Shown here: one piece after another, positions 4,616 through 49,615 of the stretch
How the letters are laid out: each line of letters starts with the position of its first letter
Numbering within the stretch: position 1 is the stretch's first letter
NCBI GenBank assembly: GCA_964436855.1
Contig: CAYTED010000001.1
Coordinates: forward strand, 64,129 to 128,128
Source: an uncultured Bdellovibrionales bacterium
GTDB taxonomy: Bacteria > Patescibacteriota > Minisyncoccia > Moranbacterales > UBA1568
Reading direction: 5' to 3'
DNA length: 64,000 nt
The notes under the pieces: model-generated
Database searches by the model: none
Told to the model about the DNA's origin: nothing
Seen by the model: the letters and a program-made list of their open reading frames with translations, nothing else
Program-made: the position numbers and the translations under genes

Positions 4616-5421
4616 ACACCCTCTCAAACTCCTCGCCAGTCACTGTTCTTCTCTCTGTATATAACGGGGAAAAAACACTTGAAAGATGCATCCGAAGTAT
4701 CTGCGCGCAAACGTATCAAAACCTTTCTCTTGTATGTATCGATGACTGCTCTACGGACCATACCCAAGAAATATTAAAAAAAATACAGGAACAGTTTCCA
4801 AACATTCCATTTACTCTAATCAGAAATGAAAAAAATGTCGGTCTGACCCACTCACTCAACCGTGGACTCGAAACAATTGACAGTTTCTATACTGCCCGCA
4901 TCGATGCCGATGACTGGTGGGAACCAACAAAAATTGAAAAACAGATGGCGTTTCTCGAGAGTCATCCTGATTACGGAGTTATCGGAACCAACTACATCAA
5001 TCACTCTGCCGAAACTTCAAGAAGCGTTGTTTTACCAAAAACAGATGCGGAAATTCATGCGACAATTTTTTGGCGAAATCCGTTCGCTCATAGTGCGGTA
5101 ATGTATCGCACCGATTTCATACGTTCGCTTGGCGGTTATAATCCGAATGTCCCATACGCCCAGGATTACGAGCTTTGGGTACGTTGTTTCCCTCATACAA
5201 AGTTTTATAATATTCAGGAATTTCTTTGTCACCGAACACTCGGAACGAGTATTTCTGTCAAGCGACAAAACGAACAAATGCGTCTTTATCTCCGTGTACT
5301 TCTTACTTACTTACCAAAGTACCGTCGACCATTAACCGAATATGGGGCTCTCATAGAACCAACCCTCGTACTTTTAACCCCAAACTGGATAAAGAATCTT
5401 AAACGAAAATATTTCCCATAA
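4612..5421 (+). CDS. Glycosyltransferase family 2 (GT-A)
   Basis: N-terminal VLLSVYNGEKTLERCIRSI...DDCSTDHT, typical GT2 with a DXD-type motif; 4-nt ATGA overlap with the upstream gene. Confidence 0.8.
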   Translation: MNTLSNSSPVTVLLSVYNGEKTLERCIRSICAQTYQNLSLVCIDDCSTDHTQEILKKIQEQFPNIPFTLIRNEKNVGLTHSLNRGLETIDSFYTARIDADDWWEPTKIEKQMAFLESHPDYGVIGTNYINHSAETSRSVVLPKTDAEIHATIFWRNPFAHSAVMYRTDFIRSLGGYNPNVPYAQDYELWVRCFPHTKFYNIQEFLCHRTLGTSISVKRQNEQMRLYLRVLLTYLPKYRRPLTEYGALIEPTLVLLTPNWIKNLKRKYFP

Positions 5422-5427
5422 TCATAT

Positions 5428-6432
5428 ATGAAAATCTTCTTGCCTTTTGAAATACGAGGAATCGGGGGAACATCTACTTTTGCAAAAAAATTTCAAGAAG
5501 GAATGCAAAAGCATGGTCACGAGGTCTTTTTTCGATACCAAAAAAATTATGACGTTCTCTTCCTTGTTGTGCAGGCGCCTTTCAAATACCTGATCGAGGC
5601 AAAACGAAGAAACATCCCCATCATTCAACGTCTGGATGGGACATATTACTGGTCGGTCAGCGGATGGAAATTTCCTCTTTACAACCTCAAAGCCGCAATC
5701 ATTCGCCATTCCTTCGCTGATTTCACACTTTATCAAAGTGAATACAGCAAATATTGCGCGAAAAAATTCCTCGGAAAAAAACATTTGGATCCTTCGGTAA
5801 TCATTTACAATGGAACTGATCTCGATCTTTTTTCACCAAAAGGAGAGACGATCAATCTCCGAGACACTCCTGATCAAAAAATATTTTTTACCGCCTCCGC
5901 CTTTCGAAGAGAGGATCAAATCATCCCCTTATTTCATGCACTCAAAGCATACCGGGAAAAATACGGATCAAACTTCAAATTTCTCATTGCTGGAACCTTT
6001 TCCGGAAAAGTGTCCGATATACCAAAGCGATACCAAGACTTCAGAGAAGCTATTTTTCTTGGTAAAATAGAAAATGCCGATTTACCGAAATACGAACGGT
6101 CGGCTGATGTGTTTCTCTTCACTCATCTCAATCCGCCATGCCCGAATAATGTAATCGAGGCACTTGCCTGCGGTCTTCCGATATGCGGTGTCGCCGACGG
6201 ATCTATGTCCGAGCTTATAACTCCGGGTAAAAACGGAGAGTTGGCCTCGGCGAAAGGAAGTGCTTTTTGGAAAGAAAGAATATACGACCCAGTTGCATTT
6301 GCCGATAATATCCAAAAAATACTCGATCACCGAGAAGTATATTCCGAGAACGCACGATTGAGCGCCGAAAAAAATTTTTCCCTGAACGCTATGATTGCCG
6401 ACTACGAAAAAGCCTTGAGCTGTATTCCTTGA
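5428..6432 (+). CDS. Glycosyltransferase family 4
   Basis: C-terminal NNVIEALACGLPICGVADGSMSELI, the GT4 nucleotide-sugar binding region. Confidence 0.8.
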   Translation: MKIFLPFEIRGIGGTSTFAKKFQEGMQKHGHEVFFRYQKNYDVLFLVVQAPFKYLIEAKRRNIPIIQRLDGTYYWSVSGWKFPLYNLKAAIIRHSFADFTLYQSEYSKYCAKKFLGKKHLDPSVIIYNGTDLDLFSPKGETINLRDTPDQKIFFTASAFRREDQIIPLFHALKAYREKYGSNFKFLIAGTFSGKVSDIPKRYQDFREAIFLGKIENADLPKYERSADVFLFTHLNPPCPNNVIEALACGLPICGVADGSMSELITPGKNGELASAKGSAFWKERIYDPVAFADNIQKILDHREVYSENARLSAEKNFSLNAMIADYEKALSCIP

Positions 6433-6482
6433 ATTGTATACATTATCCGCACATACTTAAATGCTTCCTTTTTAAAAATATC

Positions 6483-7682
6483 ATGAAAGATGTCATCCTT
6501 TTCCAGCCATATCTGCGAGTACACATACTCAATTTTGGGAAAGCCGTACAAAATTTCCGATTCGTCGTCGAATCGGACCGGTTCGCTTCCACCAAAAATT
6601 TCTATAAGAAGAGTATGTCTTCTCCGGAAAAAGAATTTTCTCGGTCAAAAGTAGGTTGGAAAAATAAAATACGGAGATTGTTCGGCATTCTCAATGTCAG
6701 GCCGAAATGTATGAAAAAAGGAGATGTTCTTTTTACCTACGGATGCCTCCTACTTACCAATAAACCCTATTGCACCTATATCGAAAACGGTGCCGCACTT
6801 TTCAATTATGATCCATTTATTTTGAAAAATCCGCTCGCTCAACTCTGGTTCTCCTTTCTTATCCGCCTCCCTCAATGCAAAAAGCTTATTTTTATGAGCG
6901 AAACGGCGAAAAAAAGCTTGATTGCTACGGCACATTTTTCAAAATCCACCCGTCGAATCATCGAAAAAAAATCCGTTCAGATTTATCCTTTCGTAAAAGC
7001 ACCGGTAAACATTATACCAAAACAATACAACGGATCCGTCAAGCTTCTTTTCACGGGCATTTATTATATGAAAGGAGGGCGCGAACTCCTGAATGCTTTT
7101 GAAAAAATACGCGAGCGATACGATAACATCACACTGACTATCGTCACTCCCCTCCATATGCTCCTTCCCGAGGATCGAAATCGTATCGAATCAGTCTCCG
7201 GAACCACACTTCTTGATGCCTCTTTCAGTCCGGAAGAAATGGAAAACTTGTACCGAACGCACGATATCTTTATGTTCCCCACATTCCGGGATACGTTTGG
7301 ACTTGTGCTTATCGAGGCAATTTCCTTTGGTATGCCAATCATCGCAACCGATCAATATGCGATTACCGAAATGGCAATTCCGAACCACAATGCCCTGATA
7401 TTCCCCAACCATCCCCTTCTCGATCACAACCCCGAAACAAAAGAAATGCACGGGAAACTCTATGATGCCAAAACCTTTTATAACGTGCTTTTCGCCGCAG
7501 AACGAGAAGGAAAAATGAAACCATTGGAAAATTTTCTTTTTGAGTCCATCTCTTGTTTTGTGGAAAAACCAGAACTCCTCAAGCAGTACTCAAAAAATTC
7601 ACTTGAACTCTACCAAAAAAAATTCCACGAAAACCTTATCTCGGAGAAAATTGAACGAGTATTTTCAGAAGCGGCAAAGTGA
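6483..7682 (+). CDS. Glycosyltransferase family 4
   Basis: TFGLVLIEAISFGMPIIATDQ GT4 motif; start set at MKDVILF (ATG 6483) after the upstream stop at 6430-6432. Confidence 0.75.
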   Translation: MKDVILFQPYLRVHILNFGKAVQNFRFVVESDRFASTKNFYKKSMSSPEKEFSRSKVGWKNKIRRLFGILNVRPKCMKKGDVLFTYGCLLLTNKPYCTYIENGAALFNYDPFILKNPLAQLWFSFLIRLPQCKKLIFMSETAKKSLIATAHFSKSTRRIIEKKSVQIYPFVKAPVNIIPKQYNGSVKLLFTGIYYMKGGRELLNAFEKIRERYDNITLTIVTPLHMLLPEDRNRIESVSGTTLLDASFSPEEMENLYRTHDIFMFPTFRDTFGLVLIEAISFGMPIIATDQYAITEMAIPNHNALIFPNHPLLDHNPETKEMHGKLYDAKTFYNVLFAAEREGKMKPLENFLFESISCFVEKPELLKQYSKNSLELYQKKFHENLISEKIERVFSEAAK

Positions 7683-7690
7683 AAAGCTTT

Positions 7691-9355
7691 CTACTTGGAA
7701 AGCCGATACAGCCGATAATCAACATCTTCCGATATCACCTCAAATGGGTACGATATATTTGAATATGTCAGTACCAAATTCACCCCGTATTTTCGAGCAA
7801 GCGAAGTGATCTCTTCCTCCGAAAAACTTGAGTATGTTTTCTTCCAATCAATGAAAACTGCTTTAAAGGTTCCGGATATTTTTTGTTTCTCGTAGTTTTG
7901 CTCGAGTTCGCCACGACTCATATCATTCATCCGCTCATACCACTCCTCCAAACCTTGAGGAGTAAAGCCGAAGGTTTTAAAGCTCACGGCATGCGGTACA
8001 TAGAAAGGTGGTCCGAACCAATTCGGTGGAGCAAGAAATGGTTCCGGATTGACGGCAAGATAACGCATAACTCCAGATTCGGGAAGTTTTTCGTTCCTTG
8101 CCTCGGAATGAGTCGCATATTCCCATGATCTTGAAATATTCTGCATCATCCGATCCGCAAAAACTTTTCCAGAAGTTGAGAGGCAGAATAATATCGAAGC
8201 GGCAAGCAGAACACCAAGAAAAATTTTTTGATACGTTCTTTTTTGGAGCCAAGAAACAAGGAGAGATACGGCCAAGAGAGCGGAAAACAAATAGCTCACG
8301 AAGTGAGTGAGGTAAATAACACGGAGTGAGTAAAATTGAAAGCCGGGAAGCCAAGGCCACACGAAAGCAAAAAAGTAAAAGAGAAAAAAGTACCCTACCG
8401 CCCCTACCCCAATCAACCCAAGAAAATCCAATTGATTCTTCGCTGAAGTTTCCATTTTTTTTCGAAGGATATACCAGCTCACACCAAGAGCGAGGATGTG
8501 TACAAAGAAAAGAAACCACGCCTTCCAGGTAATAATCGGCAATGCCATATACGGAGCACGGAAATAAATCCATGTCCAGATGAATTTCGCATCAGAAAAG
8601 TCGGCCCCGCCATTGCCGAGACGAGCGATAGAGAAAGCAAACCACCCTCCCGCAAGAAGATATACACTTCCAGCAACCAAAGCTTTACGAAAAAGTCTAT
8701 GCCAATATTGTGGACTGAAATCATTTCTTGCCCACCAATCAAAGATAATCCACGTGCCGAAAAAAAGCGTGAAGACAATCAGTGAATTGGAAACATGGAC
8801 AAGCGTAGCAAGTCCAAGAAGTACCCATGGAAGGAAGCGGGAATTGTTTAAAAGAAAATAGAGCGCAAGGAAAGAAAGCGTCATTCCAATGGATCGAGGA
8901 GCGAGTCCACCATCTACCTGTATGAAAGGTCCGTAGAGCCAAATCGGCGGCGCGATAACAATCACAAGAGCATGAAAGAATGCAACAACAGGAATGATCC
9001 AGGCACTCTCTGAAAAAAACCGCCCGATCCGCAACAATGCCCAGTACAAAACAATGAGACATCCGAGATAGAGAAGCATCCTCCACGTTTCTTCGCTCAC
9101 TGGAAGGAAATGCCAAAAATTCACCATCTTGGCATAAAAAGTATATACACCACTCTCTGTCGCCATCTCCGTATACCAATCCCCCGGCAAATAATTTACA
9201 TCCCAGAGCCGATAAACAGCCGGATCATGAATTCGTCGATCCGGACCAATCCCGAGCGAATGGATACTGAATTCAAAAAATAACAAAGAAAAGAGCAGTA
9301 TTGCCTCTAATAACCCTCTCCTTTTTTCAGTAAAGCTACTCTTTAGATGAAGCAT
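7691..9355 (-). CDS. Polytopic membrane protein, GT-C-fold-like glycosyltransferase (ArnT/PMT_2-like) with a C-terminal soluble domain
   Basis: About 12 predicted hydrophobic helices followed by a ~150-aa hydrophilic C-terminus; last gene after a GtrB-like and a GtrA-like gene; 20-nt overlap with the upstream gene. Confidence 0.6.
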   Translation of the reverse strand: MLHLKSSFTEKRRGLLEAILLFSLLFFEFSIHSLGIGPDRRIHDPAVYRLWDVNYLPGDWYTEMATESGVYTFYAKMVNFWHFLPVSEETWRMLLYLGCLIVLYWALLRIGRFFSESAWIIPVVAFFHALVIVIAPPIWLYGPFIQVDGGLAPRSIGMTLSFLALYFLLNNSRFLPWVLLGLATLVHVSNSLIVFTLFFGTWIIFDWWARNDFSPQYWHRLFRKALVAGSVYLLAGGWFAFSIARLGNGGADFSDAKFIWTWIYFRAPYMALPIITWKAWFLFFVHILALGVSWYILRKKMETSAKNQLDFLGLIGVGAVGYFFLFYFFAFVWPWLPGFQFYSLRVIYLTHFVSYLFSALLAVSLLVSWLQKRTYQKIFLGVLLAASILFCLSTSGKVFADRMMQNISRSWEYATHSEARNEKLPESGVMRYLAVNPEPFLAPPNWFGPPFYVPHAVSFKTFGFTPQGLEEWYERMNDMSRGELEQNYEKQKISGTFKAVFIDWKKTYSSFSEEEITSLARKYGVNLVLTYSNISYPFEVISEDVDYRLYRLSK

Positions 9356-9746
9356 AGCTCCAGAAGGAATGAGCGGAGAAGTTAATAACCGTAGTAATGA
9401 TTGCTACAATGATAATAACAAAAAGATCGTTAAGGTGAAGATACGATACTCCAAGATGCATAAGAAACAAACTGAGTATAGATGTCGAAAAAATCACCAC
9501 AAGAAAACGCGGAACTTGTGTGGTCACTTTTCCTGATGTCGCCTGAAAGGTCCAAATACGATTGATGCTAAAATTCCACACAATTGCCACACTCAATGAA
9601 ATTGTCCGACTCAAAAGGTAATATATATCACCATAACGAGTGAGCATGAAATAGATGGCTACATCGATAAGCAAAGCAATTCCGCCAGTGACGATAAACT
9701 TCACGAGACGTTGAAATGGAAATTTTTCAATAAGAGACCAGAGCAT
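9336..9746 (-). CDS. gtrA: GtrA-family small membrane protein (lipid-linked sugar translocation accessory)
   Basis: FIVTGGIALLIDVAIYFMLT and four short TM segments typical of GtrA-like proteins; start chosen at MLWSLIEKF; the track ORF extends to 9815. Confidence 0.65.
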   Translation of the reverse strand: MLWSLIEKFPFQRLVKFIVTGGIALLIDVAIYFMLTRYGDIYYLLSRTISLSVAIVWNFSINRIWTFQATSGKVTTQVPRFLVVIFSTSILSLFLMHLGVSYLHLNDLFVIIIVAIITTVINFSAHSFWSYASSKE

Positions 9747-9750
9747 TTTT

Positions 9751-10494
9751 TTAAAAAGCTTTTTTAGAAACAAAGCGGAATTTGAGGAATGTCCAGAGAG
9801 CAACAAAAAAATCACTGGCTCTTATTTTTTTTCCCTCCTTCACGGTTCGTGGATGATAAGAAATTGGAACCTCCATTATTCGTATGCCACTTCGAAGTAA
9901 TTTAGCAGTCAATTCATGATCTGTCTCAAATCCGAAAGTACGAATAGAAAAACTTTTTAAAATATGAGCCGGATATACTTTGTATCCTGTTAATGTATCT
10001 GTCATATATCGCCCATACAGAAAAAATACCCACAACGAAAGAAGGGCATTGGCAATATACGTAGCTATCGATTTATCCCTATGTTTTCCTAGAAGAAAAC
10101 CCCCCTCTTTTTCTTTTAATTCTCCAAGAATACGACTCCCATATATCGACAAAGATTGTGTATCACCTAAAAGCGGCTTTAAAAGAGGAATATAGTCATT
10201 CGGATCATACTCCAAATCCGCATCCTGAATAAGAATGTAGTCCCCTGTCGCTTTGGCCATCCCATATTTCGTGGCGGATCCTTTTCCACCATTTTCCTTA
10301 CGATAACACTGCACCTCTGGAAAACGCGAAGCGATTTCTGAAGTTCGGTCTTTTGAGCCATCATCTACCACGATAATTTCTCGCTCAAAACCGATTGATC
10401 GCAAATCGACTTTAAGAATAGTTTCGAGAAGCGTCCCGATAAACGCCTCTTCATTATACGCTGGAATAACGATTGATACTTTTGGCATACTCAA
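9751..10494 (-). CDS. GT2 polyprenyl-phosphate sugar synthase (dolichol-P-mannose synthase / GtrB-like)
   Basis: [11 protein letters not shown]...[12 protein letters not shown]...[10 protein letters not shown] pattern of DPM1/GtrB-like GT2 enzymes. Confidence 0.8.
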
Positions 10495-13303
10495 CTTTCA
10501 ATGATTTTTCTTTCCACACGGAATATTTCAACAATGTCCAAAGACATTTGATACCATCGAGAACCGTAATCTTCTTTCCCTCTTTGATCGTCCGAGCCTT
10601 ATAACTCACCGGCACTTCCAGAATAACATATTTTTTGCGTGCGATCTTGGCAATAAGTTCCATATCGAAATCGACGCCATTTCGAGTGAACTGCAAATCC
10701 CTGAAAATACGGGCATTGAAGCCCTTGAGGCTCGTGAGGGGGTCACCAACAAAGCGATGATAAATAACGAGCGTTAAAATACTCAATAGTGCCCCGCCAT
10801 ACTTGCTGATAAGATAAAGAAAGCCCTTCTCCCCATAAATTCGTTTCAAAGTTCCATTTAAATCATTCGTCCGGAATGCACGACTGCCAAAAACGACCGG
10901 GAATTCCTGATTTACGAGCGGTTGCACGACCCGAGCAATATCCGAGATAAGATATTCTGCATCGGAAGGAAAAAAGACAACGATATCCCCTTTCGCCTTT
11001 TCCAGACCAAGTCGTAACGCTTTTCCTCGACCTCCACTGGTACGATACACTCGTACGCCTGACTCCGCACTGGCAATTTCATAAGTCTTGTCCGAAGATC
11101 CTCCGTCAACAAAGATAATTTCTTTTTCCAAGGCAGTACCAGGAAAATGAAACCGCATCAGACCATGGAGAACACTTTTGACAGTCCGTTCTTCATTGAG
11201 CGCCGGAACAATAATCGAGACCTTTTGAGCAATATGGGCGACCTTTTTCTGCAGAGCTCCTTCAACAAGTAAAAGGAGTTCGGAAATCGTCTTACTTCCG
11301 GAATGTTTTCCTTTTTCCCCTTCCCAATCAATCCAGACAACTTTTTCCAATGGATACTCGAATGCCTTTGCATCAAAGGGAACGTAGGGGGTTTCCCCTG
11401 AAGCATTTGCTTCTGGTTTTTGGAAGAAAAACCGAGTCACCACATCCTGGCACTTCACTGCTCCATCTACCTTTCGACTCATATTAAAAAGAAATGCTCT
11501 CACGAGAGTCGTGGCATCTTCTCCAAGAATATCGTAGTCCCGCGCTATATTGGCAATAAAAATCTTTTCTGCACGGGTATTTTCCTGAATTGCTTCCGCG
11601 ATGCCCGACGTAAGATAAGAAGGCAGAAGTGATGAATATTGGGTTCCGGGTCCGTAAATAATGATATCCGCTTCCCGAAGCATTTTTTCCGCAACCGGAT
11701 TGATATCAGGAAGCGACTCTACATTTCGTAAGAGACGTATGTTATCAATCTTAAATCGACCGAGCGGATATTTTGCTTGATCAAGATACTCCGGTAAAAG
11801 AAAAATTTCCTGAATACGCGAATTATCCTGCGGTCCAACAATACTCGCCTCATCATACAAATATTTTCCATTCTCTTTCATTGCCACTAACACTCGATTA
11901 TCTCCATTTGTAATATTCAACACTCGATCACCAACTTCTGCAAAGAGAGAAAAGTTGGTTATGGCTTCATTGAAGTCCTCTCCGCTAGCGAGGTAGCACC
12001 CGGCAAAAAGGAGATTCCCAAAAGAGCAATCAGAAAATGTGAATTCCGGAAAGGAAACTATTCGTTGCTCATAATAGCGCAGGAATGCTTCAAGATACCG
12101 ACTCGCTTTCTTCGCCTGAATGAGTGCGAGTTTTTCCCTTAATACAAGAAGTTCGTGTGTAAGCTCATTGTGTTCTAAACTCACAAAGCTTCGCAATAGC
12201 AACAAAGCTTCATTTGTCCCTGTACCATCAGGAAGGCGATATTCAATCAGCTCATGCAACGCTTGCGAAGCGGTATCGGTCCTGACCTTCAGAAAGCGTG
12301 AGATATTTTTTCTGACATCAGAAGGACCAAGCATTCCTGGAATAAACCGGCGCAAAAGTCCGGTGGAGAGACCATCGTCGTACGTATTTACAAGGAGGGT
12401 AAGTTCGATATCGGGGTATTTCAGCAATGCCTCCGTAAGCGCCCCTGTCCCTCTCCCACCGGAAAACATCACTACTTTTAAATGCGCATTTGATTCTTTC
12501 ATACTCGTCATTAATGGATAAAATTCAAGAAGAGTAGCATCTGCATTATCATTGACGCCAACAGTCTCTTCAATACCCTCCAAGCGAAACGAAAGTACAC
12601 TTTCGTTTCCCGACTCAAAAAGTGGAAGCATCGGAAGAAAATTCCATTCCTTCGTAACCGGACTATATAAGATTCCTTTACTTTGCATGGAAGAGAAGAC
12701 TTCTTTCAGGCGAGATGAACGAAATGCAAAAACACCACAATCACTCTCACCGATAGCTGGCATTTTCTTACCCTCCCTTCTTTCATAAATGGATCGAAGA
12801 AGTCCGGAATGATCGCGCTCATAATGAACATACGGATCATTTCGAGAAACAAGAGGAAAAGAAAACTCCGTAGAGTGAGAATACTGTTGAATCCTCATCG
12901 TTCGATCTATGGTATCTTGTTGAATCGCGGCTTGGTCGCCCCAAATAATAAACGTGTATGGTGTGGAAATGAGTGGGATTCCCAAAGAAATAGCATCCGC
13001 CATTCCTTTTGGCTCATTTTGTATAACAATTTGATATTTCCCCTTCAACCTCCTCTCAAGATATGGTTCTACAGAAGCAACTCCTTGTGGAGAAAGAATA
13101 AAAATAAACGTTTTACATCGTGCCTCTAGACGATCGATAATCCAATCAAGAATCGGTCGTCCAGCCACTGGAAACAATATTTTTGGTTTTGAGTATCCCA
13201 AGCGACTCCCCCTTCCTGCTGCCGGAATAAGAGCCGTCCACTCATTTGCATCAGGATCTTGCTTATATCGTTCATCAACTTCATTGAGCGTGAGGATTTT
13301 CAT
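10454..13303 (-). CDS. Tri-domain fusion of 949 aa: N-terminal sugar/phospho-acid nucleotidyltransferase (NTP_transferase/MobA-like), central CofD/YvcK (UPF0052) family domain, C-terminal GT2 glycosyltransferase
   Basis: N-terminal [29 protein letters not shown] (G-x-G-x-R-L NTP-transferase loop). Middle [11 protein letters not shown]...[16 protein letters not shown] and [18 protein letters not shown] match the YvcK/CofD signature (compare YvcK GGGTG...ADDGGSSGRLR...GPGSLYTSI). C-terminal [11 protein letters not shown]...[12 protein letters not shown]...FFPSDAEY is a DPM1-like GT2. Confidence 0.8.
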
Positions 13304-13985
13304 ATGTCTCCCATTCCGAAAAAATCAATTCAATATCTGAAATTTTTTTTACAACAAAGTTTGCACCGGCCGTAAAAAGATCCTCCTCACTTTCCGTTCC
13401 AATAACCCCAACAACCCACATACCGGCATTTCTGCCTGCTCGAACGCCACTCGAAGCATCTTCAACCACTATACACCTCTCTGGCGCTATATCAAGCCTT
13501 TTTGTAGCTTCTTGATAGATTTCCGGTGAAGGTTTCGCTTCCTTGACCATAGACCCATCGAGAACAACAGAAAAGACATCGGAAAAACCACATTTTCGTA
13601 TAAAAAACTCCACAGTCTGTGGAGAAGCCGAAGAGACCAGTGCAAGACGGTATCTTTCCTGAAGAGCATGAACAAGCTGCTCGCTTCCAGGAGCTATTCT
13701 CCCTTCTGTTTCCAAGAGTTCGAGTGCCTTTTTCCGCTTTGCCGAAACAAGCACCCATAGCTCTTCAGAAGAAAATTTCCTCCCTCTTTCAGAAAGCACC
13801 TTGACCATTGCTTCGTCAGTCCGCATGCCGGCTACCGAAGCATATGAGAAATCACTTATCCCAATTTCATTCAATACTTCCCGATATGCTCGCTCATGAC
13901 AATCACTGGAAAGAAAAAGAACGCCATCCATATCGAATATCACCGCCTCGATATGCCCGAGATTATTTTTCATATTTTTGAGCAA
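13281..13985 (-). CDS. HAD-superfamily hydrolase (beta-phosphoglucomutase/phosphatase-like)
   Basis: IEAVIFDMDGVLF (DxDG motif I) and downstream HAD motifs; 23-nt overlap with the downstream fusion gene. Confidence 0.75.
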   Translation of the reverse strand: MLKNMKNNLGHIEAVIFDMDGVLFLSSDCHERAYREVLNEIGISDFSYASVAGMRTDEAMVKVLSERGRKFSSEELWVLVSAKRKKALELLETEGRIAPGSEQLVHALQERYRLALVSSASPQTVEFFIRKCGFSDVFSVVLDGSMVKEAKPSPEIYQEATKRLDIAPERCIVVEDASSGVRAGRNAGMWVVGVIGTESEEDLFTAGANFVVKKISDIELIFSEWETYENPHAQ

Positions 13986-14898
13986 CTATCCGCGATTGCC
14001 CGATCCAGTATTTGATAGGAAGCGATCCGAGACCAATTTTCTCGACTATTTTTCCGATATACTTGAAAAGAAAAAAGTGTTGTCTAGCCCGATACAACAC
14101 ATAACCCAATTCCAGGGTTTGCCAGTGCATTCCAATATCAACCACCTGAAAACCAGCTTTTCGAAGCTGTTTCCGAATAGTCTTCCTCGTATAGTACACC
14201 AAATGAACACTCAAAAGAAATGGCCATTTCCTCCCCAGAAGCCGTGCGGCAAAACTGCCAAAATCAGGGTAATTGACTACAAGCAATCCATCCGACTTTA
14301 AAATTCGATGTATCTCTTTGAGTTCAGCGCTTGGATCCGGAACATGTTCAATAACATCCCATAGCGTGACAAGATCGAATGTCGCATCCGGAAAAGAGTG
14401 ATCGAATAAAGTTCCCGTACGGACATCAAGATGATGTTTTGAGCGCGCGTATTCACTCAGCCATTTACTTGGCTCAATACCAATAGCCGATACCCCAAGT
14501 CCTTGAGCGGCACGAAGGAACGCTCCACCGGCACAACCAATATCCAACACCTTGGTATCATTGGAAAAACGCAAGTGAAATTTTTTTTGAAGCCATTGAA
14601 GTGCCGCAGTAAACGTCCGGATACGCATCAAATCTTGCTCCACGAAAGCCCTATCCTCTCCTTCAGCGTAAGAATCAACGATCATCTCTGAACGAAGACG
14701 AGGATTCAAATAAACAAGCCCGCACTTCGTGCACCGAACCACTTGTTCAAAAATCGTCTGATCGCTTGACGATCGATAGACTCTTGTCAGAAAATCTCTG
14801 GTCAAATTTTCTGGAAATCTTCCATGATACACTATCTGAAATTCCAAATGGGAACAAAGCGGACAAGCAATCGTCTCAAAAAAATCTTTCTGCTCCAT
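13963..14898 (-). CDS. Class I SAM-dependent methyltransferase with an N-terminal zinc-ribbon
   Basis: CPLCSH...CTKCG zinc ribbon followed by LDIGCAGGAFL motif I. Confidence 0.75.
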   Translation of the reverse strand: MEQKDFFETIACPLCSHLEFQIVYHGRFPENLTRDFLTRVYRSSSDQTIFEQVVRCTKCGLVYLNPRLRSEMIVDSYAEGEDRAFVEQDLMRIRTFTAALQWLQKKFHLRFSNDTKVLDIGCAGGAFLRAAQGLGVSAIGIEPSKWLSEYARSKHHLDVRTGTLFDHSFPDATFDLVTLWDVIEHVPDPSAELKEIHRILKSDGLLVVNYPDFGSFAARLLGRKWPFLLSVHLVYYTRKTIRKQLRKAGFQVVDIGMHWQTLELGYVLYRARQHFFLFKYIGKIVEKIGLGSLPIKYWIGQSRIVAQKYEK

Positions 14899-14944
14899 AC
14901 GTAATTTATCTTCAAAATATCCCGTTCATTATACTTTTTTGCCC

Positions 14945-16192
14945 TTAAAGAGGCAATGCGCTTCTTGCACCCTTCTCCATGTCCTTGAGAAATCTTCGAT
15001 AGTTCACTCCGAGAAAAACCAAAAGGCTAAGATTAAACACATACAAATAGAAGGCAGTGATCACAAAAAAACTCAATCCTTGAAGAAAAAGAATTCCCCC
15101 CACCATGAGTGCCAATGTATTGGCGAAAGCAAAGGCCAAAATTACGAAAGCATTTTTCTCTTGAGCAGAAAAAAAATTCGTAAAGTAAGTTTTAAAAGGA
15201 AAGAAAAAAACCAACGGAGATAATATCCACGCAAGCGACAAAGAGTCTGAATATTCCGAGCCATACACAAAAGGAAAGCATACGAATAAAAAGACTCCCA
15301 TAAAAAGAAAAGAGGCTATCCCTGAAAGAGAATTCCAGAAAAATATGCCTTGAAATGACTCTGTATCTCGAAACTCCTTAAAAAAATCTGGTAGTTTGAG
15401 GGCGATGAGCGCACCAAAATATGCTGAAAGAGCAGAAAGAGGAAAATAAGCAATTTGAAAAACCGCCACTAGCGAATATCCGAAAACAGCCCCAATAAGT
15501 ATGGGCGGAAGATTTTCCGTAAGATTCAAAAAAAATTTTTGACCCGTTACCGCAAGAGCATACCTAAAAGAAAAATCTTCTTTTTCGTTGTGATACCGAG
15601 ACTTTGCTTCAAAAAAGAACCAAACGGAAAAAATCGAGGTAACAGCAAAATAAACCGACACAATAAGAAGCAGATTGGCTCGAAAAAAAAGCAGGAGTAA
15701 CAACGCCAAAACCCATAAAAATGAAATGGATATCGATCGAAGAGCTACTGATCGAAATATCTTTTGACCCTCATAATAAGTATACCAAGGATTAAAACCG
15801 TAGAAGAAAGGAAAAAAGAAAGCAGCTACAAAAAAAGACTTCGCGACTTCCTCTGAAGAAAAATGCCATTGAAATATCCCGATACAAAAAAGAAGGATTG
15901 ATCCTATAAAACTCATTCGCAGCCCCATACGGACTGCTTGAGCTACTGATCCAAATGCTCCATGTACAACGCCTTTTAAGGCTGAAAAAGAAAGGCCTGG
16001 GAGTGAAAAAACGGAAACAAGCGCAACAATTGACAGCACATACTGAAAAGAACCATACGTTTCCTTATCCGACATCCTGGCAAATATGACGGAAACCAAA
16101 AAGCCCGCAAGCGATATAATTCCATAGCGAAACGAGATCCAAAAACCATTTCTCAAGACATGATTTCTCTCAAATTCATGAGCTACATCCAT
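14945..16192 (-). CDS. Polysaccharide biosynthesis/export protein (Wzx-like PST-family flippase)
   Basis: Polytopic membrane protein (~12 TM) with the N-terminal pattern of Wzx/PST flippases; sits in the glycan operon. Confidence 0.65.
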   Translation of the reverse strand: MDVAHEFERNHVLRNGFWISFRYGIISLAGFLVSVIFARMSDKETYGSFQYVLSIVALVSVFSLPGLSFSALKGVVHGAFGSVAQAVRMGLRMSFIGSILLFCIGIFQWHFSSEEVAKSFFVAAFFFPFFYGFNPWYTYYEGQKIFRSVALRSISISFLWVLALLLLLFFRANLLLIVSVYFAVTSIFSVWFFFEAKSRYHNEKEDFSFRYALAVTGQKFFLNLTENLPPILIGAVFGYSLVAVFQIAYFPLSALSAYFGALIALKLPDFFKEFRDTESFQGIFFWNSLSGIASFLFMGVFLFVCFPFVYGSEYSDSLSLAWILSPLVFFFPFKTYFTNFFSAQEKNAFVILAFAFANTLALMVGGILFLQGLSFFVITAFYLYVFNLSLLVFLGVNYRRFLKDMEKGARSALPL

Positions 16193-16199
16193 ATAAAAA

Positions 16200-17624
16200 T
16201 CACCTCTTCTTCAATGAAGGAAATATCCTCTGTAACACCTTTCTCACTTCACTCTGATTTTCGCCCCGTTTCACTAAGTGCTCAAGACTGACAAACACCG
16301 TATCTATGTCCATTGGGCAACATTCGTCATTTTTAAGAATAAAGACGTTTTCGGTTTTCGATTGAATGAGATTTTTTTTCTCGATATCCGTATAGAGCTC
16401 CTCCACGAGCTTTTCTCCCTTACGCAACCCGATCACACGGATTGCTACATCAGTTTCAGGAATAAGATTTTTTGAGCGAATCAGACAACGTGCAATATCA
16501 TCAATATTAATCAATTCCCCCATATTGAGGATATGGATCGCATTCGGCTTCGCAAATGCCGAACTTTCGATCACAAGCTGCGCCGCTTCCCGAATCGACA
16601 TAAAGAAGCGCATCATCTTTTTGTGCGTCACGGTTACATATTGATAGAGCATCATCTGACGTTCAAAGAGTGGGAGAACTGACCCATTGGAATTGATGAC
16701 ATTTCCGAATCGGACGATGTTAAACTTCGTCTTTCCTGACTTCAAGTGACGGATATAGTATTCGCAGAGCTTCTTCGTCGCTCCCATCACGCTCGTCGGA
16801 TTCACCACCTTGTCCGTCGAAATAAAAGTGAAATAGGGAACCTTCATTTCAATAGCAGTATCAATCACCCGCTTTGTACCGATAACATTATTGTAAACAG
16901 ACTCATCCACATTCTCCTGCATGAGATGTACGTGTTTGTACGCTGCTGCATGAAAAATCATATCCGGCTTGTATTCCGAAAAAAGCCGTTTCAACTTGTT
17001 GTCATGAAGAATACTCCCAACAACAAGCTCACATCGGTCCCGCATCCCCTGCTCCTTCAGTCGTTGTTCTAAAAGAAAGACGAGGTACTCCGAATTGTCA
17101 TATATCACCACTTTCCTCACCTCAAGATCAATCAACTGCCAGACGATTTCCGAACCGATAGATCCCGCGCCTCCGGTTACAAATACTGTTTTGCCACGAT
17201 AGAAGTTCTTCAGTTTTTCAACTCCTTTTCTCATAAACGGTCGACCAAGGAAATCTCCCGACTCGAGATCTCTGACCTCCACATACCGAACATCGCTCTT
17301 GCTGATAATACGCTGGTTTCGAGGAACAATTTTGAAAGGAATCCGAGTCTCCTCGTTTTCAAGTAAGATACTGCGAATCAACTTTCCATCTGTAGATGGA
17401 ATGGCGATGATCACCTCTTCTACATTATAAATGCCAAGCAGTTTTGGAAGATCGGAAATTTTTCCAAGAACGGATTTGTTATGCACAGCATCATCCACAA
17501 ACCCGATGACTTTCAGATCCTGATGATTCAACTTGATGTCTTGCGCAAGAAGCTTCCCTGCCCTTCCTGCGCCAACAATGATGATATTTTTTTCTTTCTT
17601 TTCAGTTAGCATATCACAGCACAC
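16200..17624 (-). CDS. Nucleoside-diphosphate-sugar 4,6-dehydratase/epimerase, CapD/PglF/WbpM-like
   Basis: N-terminal CoA-binding-like Rossmann (IIIVGAGRAGK) plus a second VFVTGGAGSIGSEI short-chain dehydrogenase domain, as in CapD/FlaA1/PglF. Confidence 0.8.
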   Translation of the reverse strand: MCCDMLTEKKEKNIIIVGAGRAGKLLAQDIKLNHQDLKVIGFVDDAVHNKSVLGKISDLPKLLGIYNVEEVIIAIPSTDGKLIRSILLENEETRIPFKIVPRNQRIISKSDVRYVEVRDLESGDFLGRPFMRKGVEKLKNFYRGKTVFVTGGAGSIGSEIVWQLIDLEVRKVVIYDNSEYLVFLLEQRLKEQGMRDRCELVVGSILHDNKLKRLFSEYKPDMIFHAAAYKHVHLMQENVDESVYNNVIGTKRVIDTAIEMKVPYFTFISTDKVVNPTSVMGATKKLCEYYIRHLKSGKTKFNIVRFGNVINSNGSVLPLFERQMMLYQYVTVTHKKMMRFFMSIREAAQLVIESSAFAKPNAIHILNMGELINIDDIARCLIRSKNLIPETDVAIRVIGLRKGEKLVEELYTDIEKKNLIQSKTENVFILKNDECCPMDIDTVFVSLEHLVKRGENQSEVRKVLQRIFPSLKKR

Positions 17625-19362
17625 CCTCCAGATTATTCCTGTAAAATTCCGCCGTTTTCAAAAGGCCCTCCTCCAGACTCCTTCTCGGCACTTTCTCCAA
17701 AATACCATATTTTGCCGCTTGTTCCACCACGCTTTCCCGGACATTTTGGTAAGAAATCTTCATTTTTGCCTTCAATACTCGCTCCTCAAGAACGGAAATA
17801 AGCCCTTCGATCGAGGTAAGCTCCCCGGAGCCGATGTCGAAGGTTCCGGTTAGACGATGTGCCAAAGCATATTCCACGAATCGAGAAATAGCCGGGGCAT
17901 ACACAAAATCACGCCTTGCCATCCGATCATGTATTTCCGTTTCCTTTCCAGCGAGAAAATTGCAGAGGAGATTTGCCACGAGACTCCCCCGACAGTACGG
18001 TCGCTGATACGGTCCGTATGTGTTGAAGAGACGAAAAAGAGTGAGTGGGATAGAATGCTTCTCACAGTATTGAACATAAAATCGCTCGAGTTCAATCTTG
18101 CGGCGTCCATAGTCAGAATTCGGATTCGCATACACAACCGCCGAAGAAAAAACAATAAGATGATGCCGCGACTGAATCCCCACATTGTTCACTAGACTCT
18201 CCTCTTCCTTAGCTATATCCCCCGGCTCAACGGAGTGATCAATAAGGTGAACGACAACATCCATATCCGTCTTCACCTGCTCGCGATACGGGTCAGCTCG
18301 AAGAAACACGTCCGATCGTTTCGTAAAAATCGAAAGCTTTCGTGCCACCGAAATACACTCGTTCCGTCCGGAAAAATATTCCGCAAGATTTCTCCCAACG
18401 AAACCCTCTCCCCCGAGAAAGAGGAATTTTTTTCCGGAAACTGAAGTGATTGGCTCCATCAAATCAACATTTTCTTGCGACAATGTTTGCACCTGTCGAT
18501 ATCGCTCATATGTTCTTCGAAGACCTTGCTCCAAATCCACCTTTGAGACAAAATGGTATTTTTCCCTTGCTTTTTCCACCGAAATACGGCTCTCTCGAAC
18601 CTCTTCCACTGGCACCCCGGTTATCCTATAAGGAATTTCTTTTCCTGCTATCGTGCTGATCCCATGAACCACATCCAACAGACTCGCGCTCCGACCAGTC
18701 GCGATATTGATCACATCATCCTTTTTGCAATGCTCTTTGATATTCAAGAGCGCAGAAACCACATCGTCGATAAAAATATAGTCGCGAAGCTGCTCCCCAT
18801 CGCCATTGATATTCAATATCTCCGGAGACTCCTCGAAAACTTTTCGAAAAACGAGCCCGATGAACCCTTTGTTTTTCTCCGAACCATACACATTGGAAAA
18901 TCGGAGAATACACAGTTGATGCTTTCCAGAAAGTTCTTTTTGAAGTAATACTTCGCACTCTGACTTAAACCGACTATATGAATCTATTGGTGAAAGCATT
19001 TGAGATTCTTCTGCTGATTCCTTGCAGTCTCCATACACAAGCACTGAAGAAGAAAAAAATATTCGTTTCTCAGGCAAGTCCTTCAGAACATCGATGATAT
19101 TTCGGATAATCCGTATCTCCGTTTCCGTATCAAAATCCCGATGGGCCTGTCCAAGAAAAATAAAAATATCTTCTCCTTCATTCAGTACTTTTTGAAGTAT
19201 TTCCGTATCGCGACTCGCATCAAGAGCTACTTCCTGTATTCCCGGAACATCTCCTTTGATACTCCTTGAAACAGAAACTACCTCCTCACCACACTGAACA
19301 AGCGTCTTTGCAAAGGCTGACCCAATAAACCCCGATCCACCAATCAATACCGTTTTCCGCAT
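17614..19362 (-). CDS. Tandem-fused double NAD-dependent sugar epimerase/dehydratase (two Rossmann SDR modules in one 582-aa protein)
   Basis: Two separate glycine-rich NAD motifs: VLIGGSGFIGSAF at the N-terminus and FLFLGGEGFVGRNL at ~aa 300, each followed by SDR-like YxxxK regions. Confidence 0.75.
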   Translation of the reverse strand: MRKTVLIGGSGFIGSAFAKTLVQCGEEVVSVSRSIKGDVPGIQEVALDASRDTEILQKVLNEGEDIFIFLGQAHRDFDTETEIRIIRNIIDVLKDLPEKRIFFSSSVLVYGDCKESAEESQMLSPIDSYSRFKSECEVLLQKELSGKHQLCILRFSNVYGSEKNKGFIGLVFRKVFEESPEILNINGDGEQLRDYIFIDDVVSALLNIKEHCKKDDVINIATGRSASLLDVVHGISTIAGKEIPYRITGVPVEEVRESRISVEKAREKYHFVSKVDLEQGLRRTYERYRQVQTLSQENVDLMEPITSVSGKKFLFLGGEGFVGRNLAEYFSGRNECISVARKLSIFTKRSDVFLRADPYREQVKTDMDVVVHLIDHSVEPGDIAKEEESLVNNVGIQSRHHLIVFSSAVVYANPNSDYGRRKIELERFYVQYCEKHSIPLTLFRLFNTYGPYQRPYCRGSLVANLLCNFLAGKETEIHDRMARRDFVYAPAISRFVEYALAHRLTGTFDIGSGELTSIEGLISVLEERVLKAKMKISYQNVRESVVEQAAKYGILEKVPRRSLEEGLLKTAEFYRNNLEGVL

Positions 19363-19419
19363 AATTTTCCTTTGTTAGAAGGATTTTTTGTATTATACTG
19401 TCAAAAGAATTCTTTGGAA

Positions 19420-26191: not shown

Positions 26192-26269
26192 GAATGTAAT
26201 ATTATCTTTATTACTATTAAAAAGTATATAAAAGAAAGTATAAAAAAACAAAACCTAGGTTTACACCAT

Positions 26270-48078: not shown

Positions 48079-48174
48079 TTCTTTTTTTGTGTTGCTTTTT
48101 TTATTCGCTTTTACCCATATTGTATCATAAAAATTAGCGGGGATTCCACTCACGCCGAGATTGTGCACGAAGGT

Positions 48175-49608: not shown

Positions 49609-49615
49609 ACAATAC

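Follow-up and report, generated by a model that had tools for sequence, protein, structure and literature searches.

A CofD/YvcK-like domain fused to a DPMS-like glycosyltransferase in a conserved cassette of surface-polysaccharide loci

The window, a 64,000-nt stretch of DNA, carries an unbroken 949-codon frame with an ATG start at 10454..13303. The gene, which an earlier note had placed at this position, is real and lies on the minus strand, since the plus-strand reading of the interval is riddled with stops. The neighbouring genes for which coordinates are given below are also on the minus strand. The gene overlaps both of its neighbours. The stop codon of an upstream HAD hydrolase gene lies 23 nt inside its start, which is preceded by GGGAG, and the start of a downstream glycosyltransferase gene lies 35 nt (ATG 10488) to 41 nt (TTG 10494) before its stop. 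Pfam assigned the protein three non-overlapping domains, each above its gathering cut-off. The domain E-values and a 2.85-kb open frame in DNA of 43% GC are far beyond chance. Sequence profiles and a confident AlphaFold model bear out the three domains named by the earlier note, although the relative placement of the domains is uncertain at a pTM of 0.62. The protein strings that the note had quoted were all found: a 12-residue start leading to PVAGRPILD at aa 25-53, SGGRGTG at aa 281-287, and two 11-residue strings at aa 308-318 and aa 551-561.

The N-terminal domain (aa 1-266; 12506..13303) is a GlmU-like sugar-1-phosphate nucleotidyltransferase (NT). NTP_transf_3 matched aa 24-142 (E 2.7e-14), and aa 24-261 aligned with the whole GlmU uridyltransferase domain in NCBIfam (E 2.8e-19). 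The pyrophosphorylase features are present, namely G-x-G-x-R...K, the Q/G uracil loop, the Mg-binding D and the sugar lobe. The left-handed beta-helix acetyltransferase domain found at the C-terminus of GlmU is absent: the NT region stops at about aa 266 and the CofD-like domain follows. The score is far under the GlmU equivalog cut-off (69 vs 367), and free-standing homologues of the NT are only 265-295 aa long. The earlier note was right about an N-terminal nucleotidyltransferase, but the domain is of the GlmU/RmlA type with a sugar-binding lobe and not a CofC-like activator of a small phospho-acid. For this reason, a nucleotide-sugar is the more likely product.

The middle domain (aa 272-690; 11234..12490), which includes a conserved linker to the GT2 domain, belongs to an unnamed subfamily of the CofD/YvcK superfamily. 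PF01933 matched aa 277-608 (E 2.3e-30), and the domain has this fold with the phosphate-binding and DD motifs characteristic of CofD/FbiA. The YvcK-type fold and the N-terminal catalytic-site motifs (GGGTG, DDGGSSG, GN, GPGS.YTS) are present as well; within the family, GG.G, NxYDDGxSTG and GPGTQ.SS are invariant. Across 112 sequences, about 45 positions of this domain never vary, and the GT2 domain has fewer such positions. The nearer relative of the middle domain is YvcK/GlmR and not true CofD. Similarity to M. mazei CofD (3c3d) was negligible (phmmer E 0.39, first ~40 residues only), and no CofD equivalog was among the best 25 of 43 NCBIfam matches. The YvcK model TIGR01826 matched in three separate stretches at 90.9 bits, below its cut-off of 196, and the GAK-system CofD-like model TIGR04357 gave 93.5 bits against a cut-off of 340.

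The C-terminal domain (aa 691-949 plus the stop codon; 10454..11233) is a DPMS/AglJ/ArnC-like GT2 without a transmembrane anchor. Glycos_transf_2 matched aa 696-821 (E 5.4e-21), and aa 694-928 aligned with AglJ/DPM1-type enzymes in NCBIfam (E 9e-27). It has a GT-A fold in which D733, the nucleotide-binding Asp, and D781-x-E783, the DxD-type metal motif, are invariant. The downstream neighbour at 9751..10494, with a probable ATG start at 10488, encodes a free-standing DPMS-like GT2 of 247 aa (PF00535, E 6e-28). The two are paralogues with 37% identity (E 9e-47). DPMS is the best match of both copies, and the closest solved structures are polyprenyl-phosphate glycosyltransferases; the best PDB sequence match of the free-standing copy is DPMS 5mlz (E 1.5e-13). 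Each copy has one marginal hydrophobic segment resembling an interface helix and no transmembrane helix, and each keeps the C-terminal R...GKK motif common to DPMS-type enzymes.

The upstream neighbour at 13281..13985 encodes a HAD-IA hydrolase of the beta-phosphoglucomutase family (Pfam HAD_2 and Hydrolase), for which beta-PGMs give the best PDB matches (E 1e-22), with CbbY and the BT2127-type pyrophosphatase next. A set of 63 homologues keeps its motifs FD.DGVL, S.S, KP.P and ED. Next upstream, at 13963..14898, is a SAM-dependent methyltransferase with an N-terminal Cys4 ribbon (Methyltransf_23, E 7e-30) and the conserved motifs CP.C...C..C and LD.GCAGGAF. The same operon-like run continues upstream. 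Counting from the 949-aa gene, the third gene encodes a Wzx-like flippase (14945-16192), the fourth a PglF/CapD-like dehydratase (16200-17624) and the fifth a tandem double epimerase/dehydratase (17614-19362), all assigned by Pfam. These three genes are clade-specific, accompany the cassette only in loci L004-L019 and lie outside its core.

Two genes downstream of the 949-aa gene lies a GtrA-family small membrane protein (9336..9815; PF04138 GtrA_DPMS_TM, E 3.6e-20) with three hydrophobic segments by scan. It is followed by a 554-aa polytopic membrane protein (7691..9355) that has no significant Pfam match (DUF6798, 19.5 bits vs a cut-off of 26.9) and no PDB sequence match. Its AlphaFold model (pLDDT 91.5, pTM 0.91) shows a GT-C fold: the top 12 Foldseek matches are all GT-C enzymes (STT3, AftA, AglB, PglB; E 5e-5 to 3e-2). 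GPDRxIHD, located after the first transmembrane helix, is invariant in the family, whose records are labelled only as Patescibacteria. Judging from the model, the 554-aa protein is presumed to be an extracytoplasmic transferase. In the window's clade, this protein and a PMT-like 542-aa protein, two GT-C-like genes in all, flank the operon. The coupled GtrB/GtrA/GT-C module described in the earlier note therefore exists, with a DPMS/GtrB-like GT2, a GtrA-family protein and a GT-C-matching model, but it is limited to the window's Patescibacteria-like clade. GtrA was found beside the cassette only in this clade (8/55 loci), and an HMM search added none.

The genome scan gave 320 confirmed stretches, each from one species-representative genome, hence at least 320 species-level genomes, and neighbours were counted over the 55 loci with enough flank. 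A paralogous GT2 was present in 55/55 loci, the NT in 52, the HAD in 48, the methyltransferase in 31 and a B12-radical-SAM enzyme in 13; the last two often lie upstream of the core cassette. CofD-like–GT2 is fused in every census locus and in most of 318 clusters formed at 50% identity. The conserved unit is thus this fusion in the cassette HAD–NT–[CofD-like–GT2]–GT2, with a ~240-aa paralogue as the last member, and not the tri-domain fusion. The tri-domain fusion emphasized in the earlier note is real, with in-frame tri-domain proteins in more than 30 clusters and many samples when the same architecture was searched across genomes, but it is evolutionarily labile, the NT repeatedly joining to and separating from CofD-GT2. 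In the closest relatives (80%, 71% and 63% identity; L019, L011 and L013), NT and CofD-GT2 are two abutting genes in different frames. All pairwise fusions along the gene order occur somewhere: the methyltransferase is fused to the HAD (L010 and L012), the HAD to the NT (about ten Bryobacterales loci) and the NT to CofD-GT2. A four-domain HAD-NT-CofD-GT2 protein of 1148 aa was also seen. Such Rosetta-stone evidence indicates that the cassette products act together.

The cassette occurs in Patescibacteria, Bdellovibrionota, Acidobacteriota, Magnetococcales, Planctomycetota, Elusimicrobiota, Margulisbacteria and one Methanosarcinales MAG, and its loci also carry Wzx, Wzy and GT4 genes. Fluviispira multicolorata and Bacteriovorax sp. 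BSW11_IV are among the organisms that bear it. The GT-C neighbours belong to three families in different phyla, namely the 554-aa family, YfhO and PMT_2. By a crude hydrophobicity scan, a polytopic membrane protein lies within 6 kb in only 32/55 loci, and some of these are unrelated transporters. No F420 genes were found among the scanned window ORFs, in a scan that was not exhaustive; the neighbours in the window and in the examined related loci are glycan-synthesis genes. The yvcJ-yvcK-whiA context was absent from the 55 cassette loci with enough flank, where the HAD–NT–[CofD-GT2]–GT2 arrangement stands instead.

We tentatively propose, at somewhat less than even chances, that the cassette builds a tailored polyprenyl-phosphate-linked sugar donor at the cytoplasmic face of the membrane, with the CofD-like domain acting on a nucleotide-activated substrate. 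The GlmU-like domain would convert an NTP (probably UTP) and a sugar-1-phosphate to an NDP-sugar (NDP-X), and the HAD would either supply the phosphorylated substrate or take off phosphate or pyrophosphate. The two paralogous DPMS-like GT2 domains would transfer sugar to polyprenyl phosphate at the membrane surface. The YvcK/CofD-like domain, fused to one of them, may use the nucleotide-activated compound from the adjacent NT. In F420 synthesis, neither the nucleotidyltransferase nor CofD works without the other: an unstable NDP-X couples the pair, and its beta-phosphate is attacked directly by the hydroxyl of the acceptor (PMC8764529, PMC7253369). By analogy, a hydroxyl of the lipid-linked sugar would most likely attack the beta-phosphate, NMP would depart and a phosphodiester-linked substituent would remain. 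In the window's clade, export of the donor and its use in decorating extracytoplasmic glycans may then fall to GtrA and the GT-C-fold protein; in other phyla, GT-C enzymes of the YfhO or PMT_2 type may take the place of these two.

We infer the substrates, the order of the steps and the CofD-type chemistry of the cassette. Transfer of a phospho-substituent through a nucleotide-activated intermediate onto a lipid-linked sugar seems a reasonable reading of the cassette. Counting against the donor proposal, the CofD-like domain is nearer to YvcK/GlmR, which is reported for UDP-sugar binding and uridylyl transfer and not for phospho-group transfer. Further points against it are that GtrA does not occur beside the cassette outside the window's clade, that only part of the loci have a polytopic membrane protein nearby by the crude scan, that the placement of the domains relative to each other is uncertain, and that the proposal leaves the paralogous GT2 pair unexplained.

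The CofD-like domain differs from the known members of its superfamily. Compared with the CofC/CofD (FbiD/FbiA) pair, its similarity to true CofD is negligible, its partner NT is GlmU-like with a sugar-binding lobe and not of the CofC type, it is fused to a glycosyltransferase in polysaccharide loci, and no F420 gene turned up nearby in the ORFs scanned. Compared with YvcK/GlmR (CuvA; UPF0052 of Firmicutes and Actinobacteria), it scores below the family cut-off, has an extra segment of ~60-85 aa that is helical in the model, is permanently fused to GT2 outside the yvcJ-yvcK-whiA operon, and occurs in Gram-negative and candidate phyla. Its C-terminal third, which corresponds to the UDP-GlcNAc-sensing region of YvcK, did not align by sequence. 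In the bifunctional IPCT/DIPPS enzyme (CTP:inositol-1-phosphate cytidylyltransferase–CDP-inositol phosphotransferase, acting ahead of a phosphatase), the DIPPS part does not have the PF01933 fold but is a CDP-alcohol phosphotransferase integral to the membrane; that system makes a soluble osmolyte and has no glycosyltransferase.

The overlapping genes of the window, a DPMS/GtrB-type GT2, a GtrA and a GT-C fold, resemble the three-component systems GtrA/GtrB/GtrC, CsbB/GtcA/YfhO, ArnC/ArnE-F/ArnT and PpgS/Rv3632/GT-C, and in other phyla YfhO or PMT_2 adjoins the cassette. Unlike these, the cassette has two paralogous GT2 catalytic domains without transmembrane anchors, and only the cassette has an obligatory YvcK/CofD-like domain with a dedicated NT and HAD. 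ArnC followed by ArnD makes cytoplasmic tailoring of a lipid-linked sugar plausible for the cassette. No characterised pathway or curated family with the NT–CofD-like–GT2 architecture, and no paper on the cassette, was found in the literature or family databases, in line with the earlier note, which knew of no such pathway.

To our knowledge, the sole firmly established chemistry of the CofD/YvcK superfamily is the transfer of phospholactate or PEP in F420 synthesis. The role of the YvcK/GlmR branch is debated, with a UDP-sugar sensor, a GlmS activator and an accessory uridylyltransferase all under discussion. The cassette of the 949-aa enzyme, found in surface-sugar loci of many phyla, offers a new way into YvcK/CofD-like function outside F420. 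Because CofD-like–GT2 keeps fixed company with an NT, a HAD and a second GT2, the possible substrates are sharply narrowed and the function can be tested with purified proteins. The cassette also marks an undescribed modification of surface glycans in lineages with barely known envelopes. We consider it possible, though doubtful, that the YvcK/CofD-like domain represents a new class of glycan phosphotransferase. It would use the NDP-sugar of its partner NT to add a sugar or substituent through a phosphodiester to a polyprenyl-phosphate-linked sugar or, as an initiating enzyme of soluble fold, to polyprenyl phosphate itself. If it is a phosphotransferase on lipid-linked sugars, it would form a new enzyme family of glycan phospho-decoration beside the TagF, LicD and Stealth types and reveal a previously unrecognised, phylum-spanning route of surface-glycan decoration. 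It would also hint at the chemistry of YvcK-type proteins and give the large YvcK/UPF0052 branch a biochemical role.

A rather unlikely alternative is that the cassette contains two activators and two transferases. The YvcK-like domain would be a second, GlmR-type NT (NTP + sugar-1-phosphate → NDP-sugar + PPi) serving the fused GT2, and the GlmU-like NT would serve the free GT2. The products would be two different polyprenyl-P-sugars or a sequential two-sugar loading, with the HAD as a mutase or pyrophosphatase aiding both activations. GlmR/YvcK has been reported to convert UTP and GlcNAc-1-P to UDP-GlcNAc, for which the DD motif is required (PMC10128056, PMC13046274), and the DD pair that this catalysis needs is invariant here. 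The closeness to YvcK, the two GT2 paralogues, the two flanking GT-C-like genes of the window's clade and the inorganic pyrophosphatase among the HAD relatives are consistent with this scheme. However, the cassette already includes its own highly conserved GlmU-like NT, in some cases within the same polypeptide, so a second, weak "accessory" NT looks redundant. The uridylyltransferase activity of GlmR is a recent report from few studies, and most phyla have a single GT-C neighbour or none.

It is improbable that the YvcK-like domain is a regulatory sensor, which would bind a UDP-sugar and allosterically tune the fused GT2 while catalysing no step. B. subtilis YvcK/GlmR does bind UDP-Glc and UDP-GlcNAc and regulates GlmS (PMC5482804, PMC7525490), and sensor domains are typically found fused to a single enzyme for good. 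Nevertheless, the residues that are invariant across phyla are the catalytic-cleft motifs of the superfamily (GG.G, DD, GPG..SS), the number of invariant positions is above that of the GT2 domain, and the ligand-sensing residues Y265 and R301 of YvcK lie in the part that did not align. Should the domain turn out to be a sensor or a second nucleotidyltransferase after all, the cassette would nonetheless offer the clearest support from genomes for such a role.

We give a poor chance to a soluble pathway in which the GT2s glycosylate a small phosphorylated acceptor in the manner of glucosyl- or mannosyl-3-phosphoglycerate synthases and the HAD dephosphorylates the product like MpgP. The NT and the CofD-like domain would then attach the product by a phosphodiester to give a compatible solute, a cofactor-like molecule or a head-group. 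In comparison with GpgS/GpgP and MpgS/MpgP, however, the AglJ/DPMS profiles beat GpgS (E 9e-27 vs 3e-14), and both GT2 copies have the marginal hydrophobic helix of interface type and keep the R...GKK motif. The HAD is of subfamily IA and not IIB as in MpgP/OtsB, and the setting is surface polysaccharide synthesis, with Wzx, Wzy, GT4 and GT-C genes.

It is very unlikely that the CofD-like domain is a new initiating enzyme, a soluble-fold phosphoglycosyl transferase that would move sugar-1-phosphate from an NDP-sugar to polyprenyl phosphate (giving Pren-PP-sugar and NMP), with the GT2s extending the product to a short repeat unit and Wzx flipping it. The leaving group and bond type fit CofD chemistry, a Wzx gene is in the window's operon, and a motif scan of the 64-kb window turned up no signature of the WecA/MraY or PglC/WbaP type, with only 4/82 related loci having one. 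The scan is crude, however, and initiating transferases are often encoded elsewhere. Furthermore, the GT2s resemble polyprenyl-phosphate (monophosphate) glycosyltransferases and not extenders of Pren-PP-sugars, and GtrA and GT-C suit the monophosphate route.

It can practically be dismissed that the long ORF is an artefact in which sequencing or assembly merged two or three genes by a frameshift or a false join. A single-base error could in principle make or break the NT fusion, because the abutting genes of the closest relatives differ in frame, but the gene is uniform in composition along its length, the confidence of the AlphaFold model holds at both junctions except for short linkers, and CofD-GT2 is fused in every census locus. 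The tri-domain protein also occurs in the cultured Bacteriovorax sp. BSW11_IV (WP_021271931.1), and the identical 949-aa protein is recorded both at NCBI and in an independent Logan assembly, on a contig of 203,564 nt.

The 949-aa protein is encoded by a 949-codon frame with an ATG start on the minus strand of window 10454..13303; the plus-strand reading was rejected because its translation contains many stops. The strings quoted in the earlier note, which had reported a tri-domain ORF, were all found in the minus-strand translation, and the architecture was confirmed by Pfam, NCBIfam, and structure, with the strand corrected to minus. Three Pfam domains were detected above the gathering cut-off and without mutual overlap: NTP_transf_3 (aa 24-142, E 2.7e-14), CofD PF01933 (aa 277-608, E 2.3e-30), and Glycos_transf_2 (aa 696-821, E 5.4e-21). 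NCBIfam matched a full GlmU-type uridyltransferase domain at aa 24-261 (E 2.8e-19) and an AglJ/DPM1-type catalytic domain at aa 694-928 (E 9e-27), and since all NCBIfam matches were far under the curated family cut-offs, the protein falls outside every named family. The AlphaFold model (112 homologues) had a mean pLDDT of 89.8 and a pTM of 0.62, with low confidence in the short linkers at aa 267-271 and 663-668, so the predicted folds, which the earlier note had proposed to model, appear reliable and the relative placement of the domains less so. Structure searches concurred with the sequence profiles. Fold and motifs place the protein with the CofD/YvcK superfamily, the sugar-1-phosphate nucleotidyltransferases, and the DPMS-type GT2 enzymes, and the description of the middle region as CofD/YvcK-like holds. 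Tests of membership in CofD, YvcK/GlmR, the GAK-system CofD-like family, and GlmU proper were all negative, and an F420-type CofD was ruled out as the identity of the middle domain by sequence and gene context.

A genome scan of 185,579 species, each represented by a single genome, yielded 320 stretches encoding relatives, and the best 80 of these 320 were used as census loci. The window's proteins and two radical-SAM proteins from related loci were searched against raw ORFs by BLAST at E <= 1e-6 with uncurated gene calls, and neighbours were counted in the 55 loci whose flanks reached 4 kb or more upstream and 2.5 kb or more downstream. The CofD-like and GT2 domains (CofD-GT2) were fused in all census loci. 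Beside their gene, a free-standing GT2 of ~240 aa was present in 55 of 55 loci, a GlmU-like nucleotidyltransferase (NT) in 52 (fused to CofD-GT2 in 7), a HAD protein in 48, a Zn-ribbon methyltransferase (MTase) in 31, and a ~500-aa B12-binding radical-SAM enzyme (rSAM) in 13. The gene order of this cassette is near-fixed: (rSAM)-(MTase)-HAD-NT-[CofD-GT2]-GT2. When the CofD-like domain on its own was searched exhaustively with HMMER, it gave 318 clusters at 50% identity (E <= 1e-30), most of them 640-700 aa (CofD-GT2), some ~930-960 aa, and a minority of ~400 aa that may be free-standing or truncated.

Carriers of the cassette include Patescibacteria, Bdellovibrionota (including the cultured Fluviispira multicolorata), Acidobacteriota, Magnetococcales, Brocadiaceae, Elusimicrobiota, Margulisbacteria, Dependentiae, Polyangiaceae, and Methanosarcinales; the closest relatives carry the conflicting labels 'Patescibacteria group' and 'uncultured Bdellovibrionales'. 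Of the two, Patescibacteria seems the likelier, since the named homologues of a 554-aa protein of the window are so labelled and type IV pilus genes are present in the window. In Bacteriovorax, an acidobacterial contig, and two MAGs (one Brocadiaceae, one Bdellovibrionota), independent gene calls and Pfam also showed this cassette, with Wzx, Wzy, GT4, ABC-exporter, and sugar-nucleotide-modifying genes as neighbours. One related locus (L063, match at 10001-13544) is the 40.9-kb plasmid pF-183-2 of the cultured acidobacterium Bryobacterales bacterium F-183, which carries NT, CofD-GT2, two GT2, and methyltransferase genes. This suggests that horizontal movement is possible, and the plasmid is a tractable experimental source of the cassette. 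In a Brocadiaceae MAG (L002, 1006-8078 and 12977-13960), four radical-SAM genes surround the cassette, split evenly between the B12-binding and SPASM/twitch classes, which hints that in some lineages the product undergoes heavy C-/P-methylation or another kind of radical tailoring.

The NT domain aligned end to end with the uridyltransferase domain of GlmU and carries AAGxGxR…PK with its catalytic Arg and Lys, the Q-x-E-x-x-G loop, a GD that binds metal, and a terminal GVN(D). These motifs are kept in at least 95% of 75 homologues, fused and free-standing, and the Q-x-E-x-x-G loop is the counterpart of the loop reading uracil in GlmU; the most economical reading is that the NT would form a UDP-sugar. 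The HAD protein (13281-13985, minus strand) belongs to subfamily IA, beta-phosphoglucomutase branch, and its best PDB matches were beta-PGMs (E 1e-22), with CbbY, a sugar-phosphate phosphatase, and the HAD-type pyrophosphatase BT2127 ranking next. It and 63 homologues keep the catalytic DxD, S, K, and ED as well as the family-specific cap motif Y...AG.RT. At the distal-phosphate site, the Ser-Lys-Asn of beta-PGM is replaced by Ser-Pro-Gln. HAD may accordingly be a mutase, a phosphatase, or a pyrophosphatase, the last of these being an idea drawn from NCBIfam and PDB similarity only. The fused and free-standing GT2 units are paralogues (37% identity, E 9e-47), and DPMS was the top match of both among solved structures. 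Both keep the nucleotide-binding Asp, the D-x-D/E metal motif, and the C-terminal R…G-K-K motif; no transmembrane helix was found in either unit, and each has one marginally hydrophobic helix where DPMS has interface helices.

Downstream of the 949-aa gene lie the free-standing GT2 (9751-10494), GtrA (9336-9815; PF04138, E 3.6e-20), and a 554-aa polytopic membrane protein (7691-9355, minus strand), and the reading frames of the four genes overlap. The 554-aa protein had only a sub-threshold Pfam match, and neither its own sequence nor a profile of its family matched any PDB sequence. Its homologues are all unnamed, the only taxon names attached being Patescibacteria or Saccharimonadales, and the family appears confined to Patescibacteria-labelled records. 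The AlphaFold model (61 homologues; pLDDT 91.5, pTM 0.91) gave twelve best Foldseek matches that were all GT-C (E 5e-5 to 3e-2, TM ~0.4), namely STT3 of yeast and human OST, AftA, AglB, and PglB, which backs the earlier GT-C call at the fold level. The motif GPDRxIHD after the first transmembrane helix is invariant in the family, which, judged from the model, looks like an undescribed GT-C family. A divergently transcribed gene at 19372-21000 (plus strand), which the window's clade conserves at the operon's other end, encodes a 542-aa PMT-like GT-C (PF02366, E 3e-7). Its GPDEQxH after the first transmembrane helix resembles the motif of the 554-aa family; comparing the profiles of the two families with each other gave no significant match (probability 0.5%).

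Membrane proteins beside the cassette were counted by a crude hydropathy scan, which also picked up unrelated transporters. GtrA and the 554-aa family were seen with the cassette in 8 of 55 loci, all in the window's clade, and no GtrA beside it was picked up in other phyla by an HMM search. The GtrB/GtrA/GT-C module described earlier is present in the window and goes with the cassette, as a full set, in this clade only. A Bryobacterales locus has YfhO beside the cassette, and another Bryobacteraceae locus and a Bdellovibrionota genome have PMT_2. In F. multicolorata (L069), a 607-aa protein of the WecA/MraY type (13536-15359; PF00953, E 1e-36) with ~16 hydrophobic segments directly follows the cassette. 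That GT-C genes from three unrelated families recur beside the cassette is the strongest indirect sign of a polyprenyl-phosphate-linked donor as its product.

GT2 enzymes of the DPMS/GtrB/ArnC type transfer the sugar of an NDP-sugar to polyprenyl phosphate, and GtrA-family proteins and GT-C enzymes finish such pathways outside the membrane. YvcK/GlmR binds UDP-sugars, and UDP-GlcNAc formation has been reported. In CofD/FbiA, the acceptor hydroxyl attacks the beta-phosphate of NDP-X directly with release of GMP; the NDP-X is made by a partner nucleotidyltransferase, and the two work only as a pair because the intermediate is unstable (PMC7253369, PMC8764529). From this chemistry and the anatomy of the domains and cassette, we tentatively favour a scheme to which we give somewhat less than an even chance. 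The NT, with the help of HAD, would make an NDP-sugar, and the GT2 domains would load polyprenyl phosphate. The CofD-like domain, beside one GT2, would spend NDP-X to place a phosphodiester-linked group onto the lipid-linked sugar; the methyltransferase and B12-rSAM enzyme would tailor the product where present, and GtrA and the GT-C enzyme would hand it to an extracytoplasmic glycan.

The CofD-like domain aligned with YvcK over GGxGTG, DDGxS(S/T)GxLR, (P)xD(V/I)R(K/N), GN(L)(L/F), and GPG(S/T)x(Y)(T/S)S; it differs from YvcK in an additional segment of ~60-85 aa within aa ~340-425, helical in the model, and its C-terminal third showed no sequence alignment to YvcK. Across 112 sequences from many phyla, ~45 positions are invariant, among them D309 and D310. 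In the GlmR proteins of Listeria and B. subtilis, the Asp pair corresponding to these two residues is needed for activity (PMC10128056, PMC13046274). Several alternatives to the favoured scheme can be roughly weighted. The domain might be a second, GlmR-type nucleotidyltransferase supplying the fused GT2, which we consider unlikely. A role as a UDP-sugar sensor, in keeping with the binding of UDP-sugars by YvcK/GlmR, seems quite unlikely, as the invariant positions including D309/D310 point to catalysis rather than binding alone. A soluble phosphoglycerate-type glycoside pathway is very unlikely. That the domain is a new soluble-fold initiating phosphoglycosyl transferase is highly improbable. 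A regex search, too crude to count as evidence, found canonical phosphoglycosyl transferases nowhere in the window and rarely in related loci.

The chance that an artefact lies behind the 949-aa fusion is virtually nil, an assembly chimera being ruled out by the confident AlphaFold model, by an identical protein on record at NCBI and in an independent Logan assembly (203,564-nt contig), and by recurrence in >30 clusters of in-frame tri-domain proteins at 90% identity. One of these, WP_021271931.1 from the cultured Bacteriovorax sp. BSW11_IV, has 42-43% identity to the 949-aa protein. In the closest genome relatives, L019 (80% identity), L011 (71%), and L013 (63%), NT and CofD-GT2 are separate genes that abut each other but are read in different frames. 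A neighbour-joining tree of 112 CofD-GT2 core sequences shows at least ~12 changes between the fused and split states, a rough count possibly inflated by truncated gene calls. The window's fusion is in all likelihood real, yet it is one state of an often-toggling junction. Each adjacent pair in (MTase)-HAD-NT-[CofD-GT2] is fused in some locus: MTase-HAD in L010 and L012, HAD-NT in ~ten Bryobacterales loci, and NT-CofD-GT2 in the window's clade, Bacteriovoracaceae, and others. A 1148-aa HAD-NT-CofD-GT2 protein (P0147) occurs in a Methanosarcinales MAG (L054, match at 5086-7836); this most complete cassette fusion is carried by an archaeon. The tri-domain fusion is thus not the key feature of the system.

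Full-text literature searches turned up no description of the architecture, in line with the earlier statement that no characterised pathway with it is known. The nearest mention is of a Mycoplasma fermentans GT2 synthase that has a CofD-family pseudogene and an NDP-nucleotidyltransferase as neighbours (PMC11658790), and database names of relatives are generic ('glycosyltransferase' or 'CofD family protein'). We classify the cassette as a polyprenyl-phosphate-sugar glycosylation module to which an obligatory YvcK/CofD-like enzyme, a dedicated NT, and HAD have been added. It is possible but doubtful that the CofD-like domain performs chemistry new to glycans. The cassette matters because it is widespread and fixed in composition and bears on what YvcK-type proteins do.

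The operon of the 949-aa gene lies in a glycan-synthesis island (1-24000, 40-44% GC) with an asparagine-synthase-like gene, several methyltransferases, and GT4 and GT2 genes; the housekeeping part (26000-64000) has 45-50% GC. A 582-aa ORF (17614-19362, minus strand) consists of two NAD-dependent epimerase/dehydratase domains fused in tandem, and its halves are separate genes in two related loci (L013 and L015; ~320-330 and 285 aa). Directly adjoining the island, a 1133-aa protein (22850-26251, minus strand) has an LCAT-like lipase/acyltransferase domain together with a right-handed beta-helix and a weak chitobiase C-terminal-like match. Rfam and tRNA scans of the window gave no matches. Type IV pilus genes for a PilB-like ATPase, PilM, and a PilC-like platform protein are located at 37377-39209, 46963-48168, and 51819-53093, all on the minus strand, and several ORFs among them (45670-46446, 48175-49677, and 53116-54117) had no Pfam match; the presence of the pilus genes fits a Patescibacteria-type organism.
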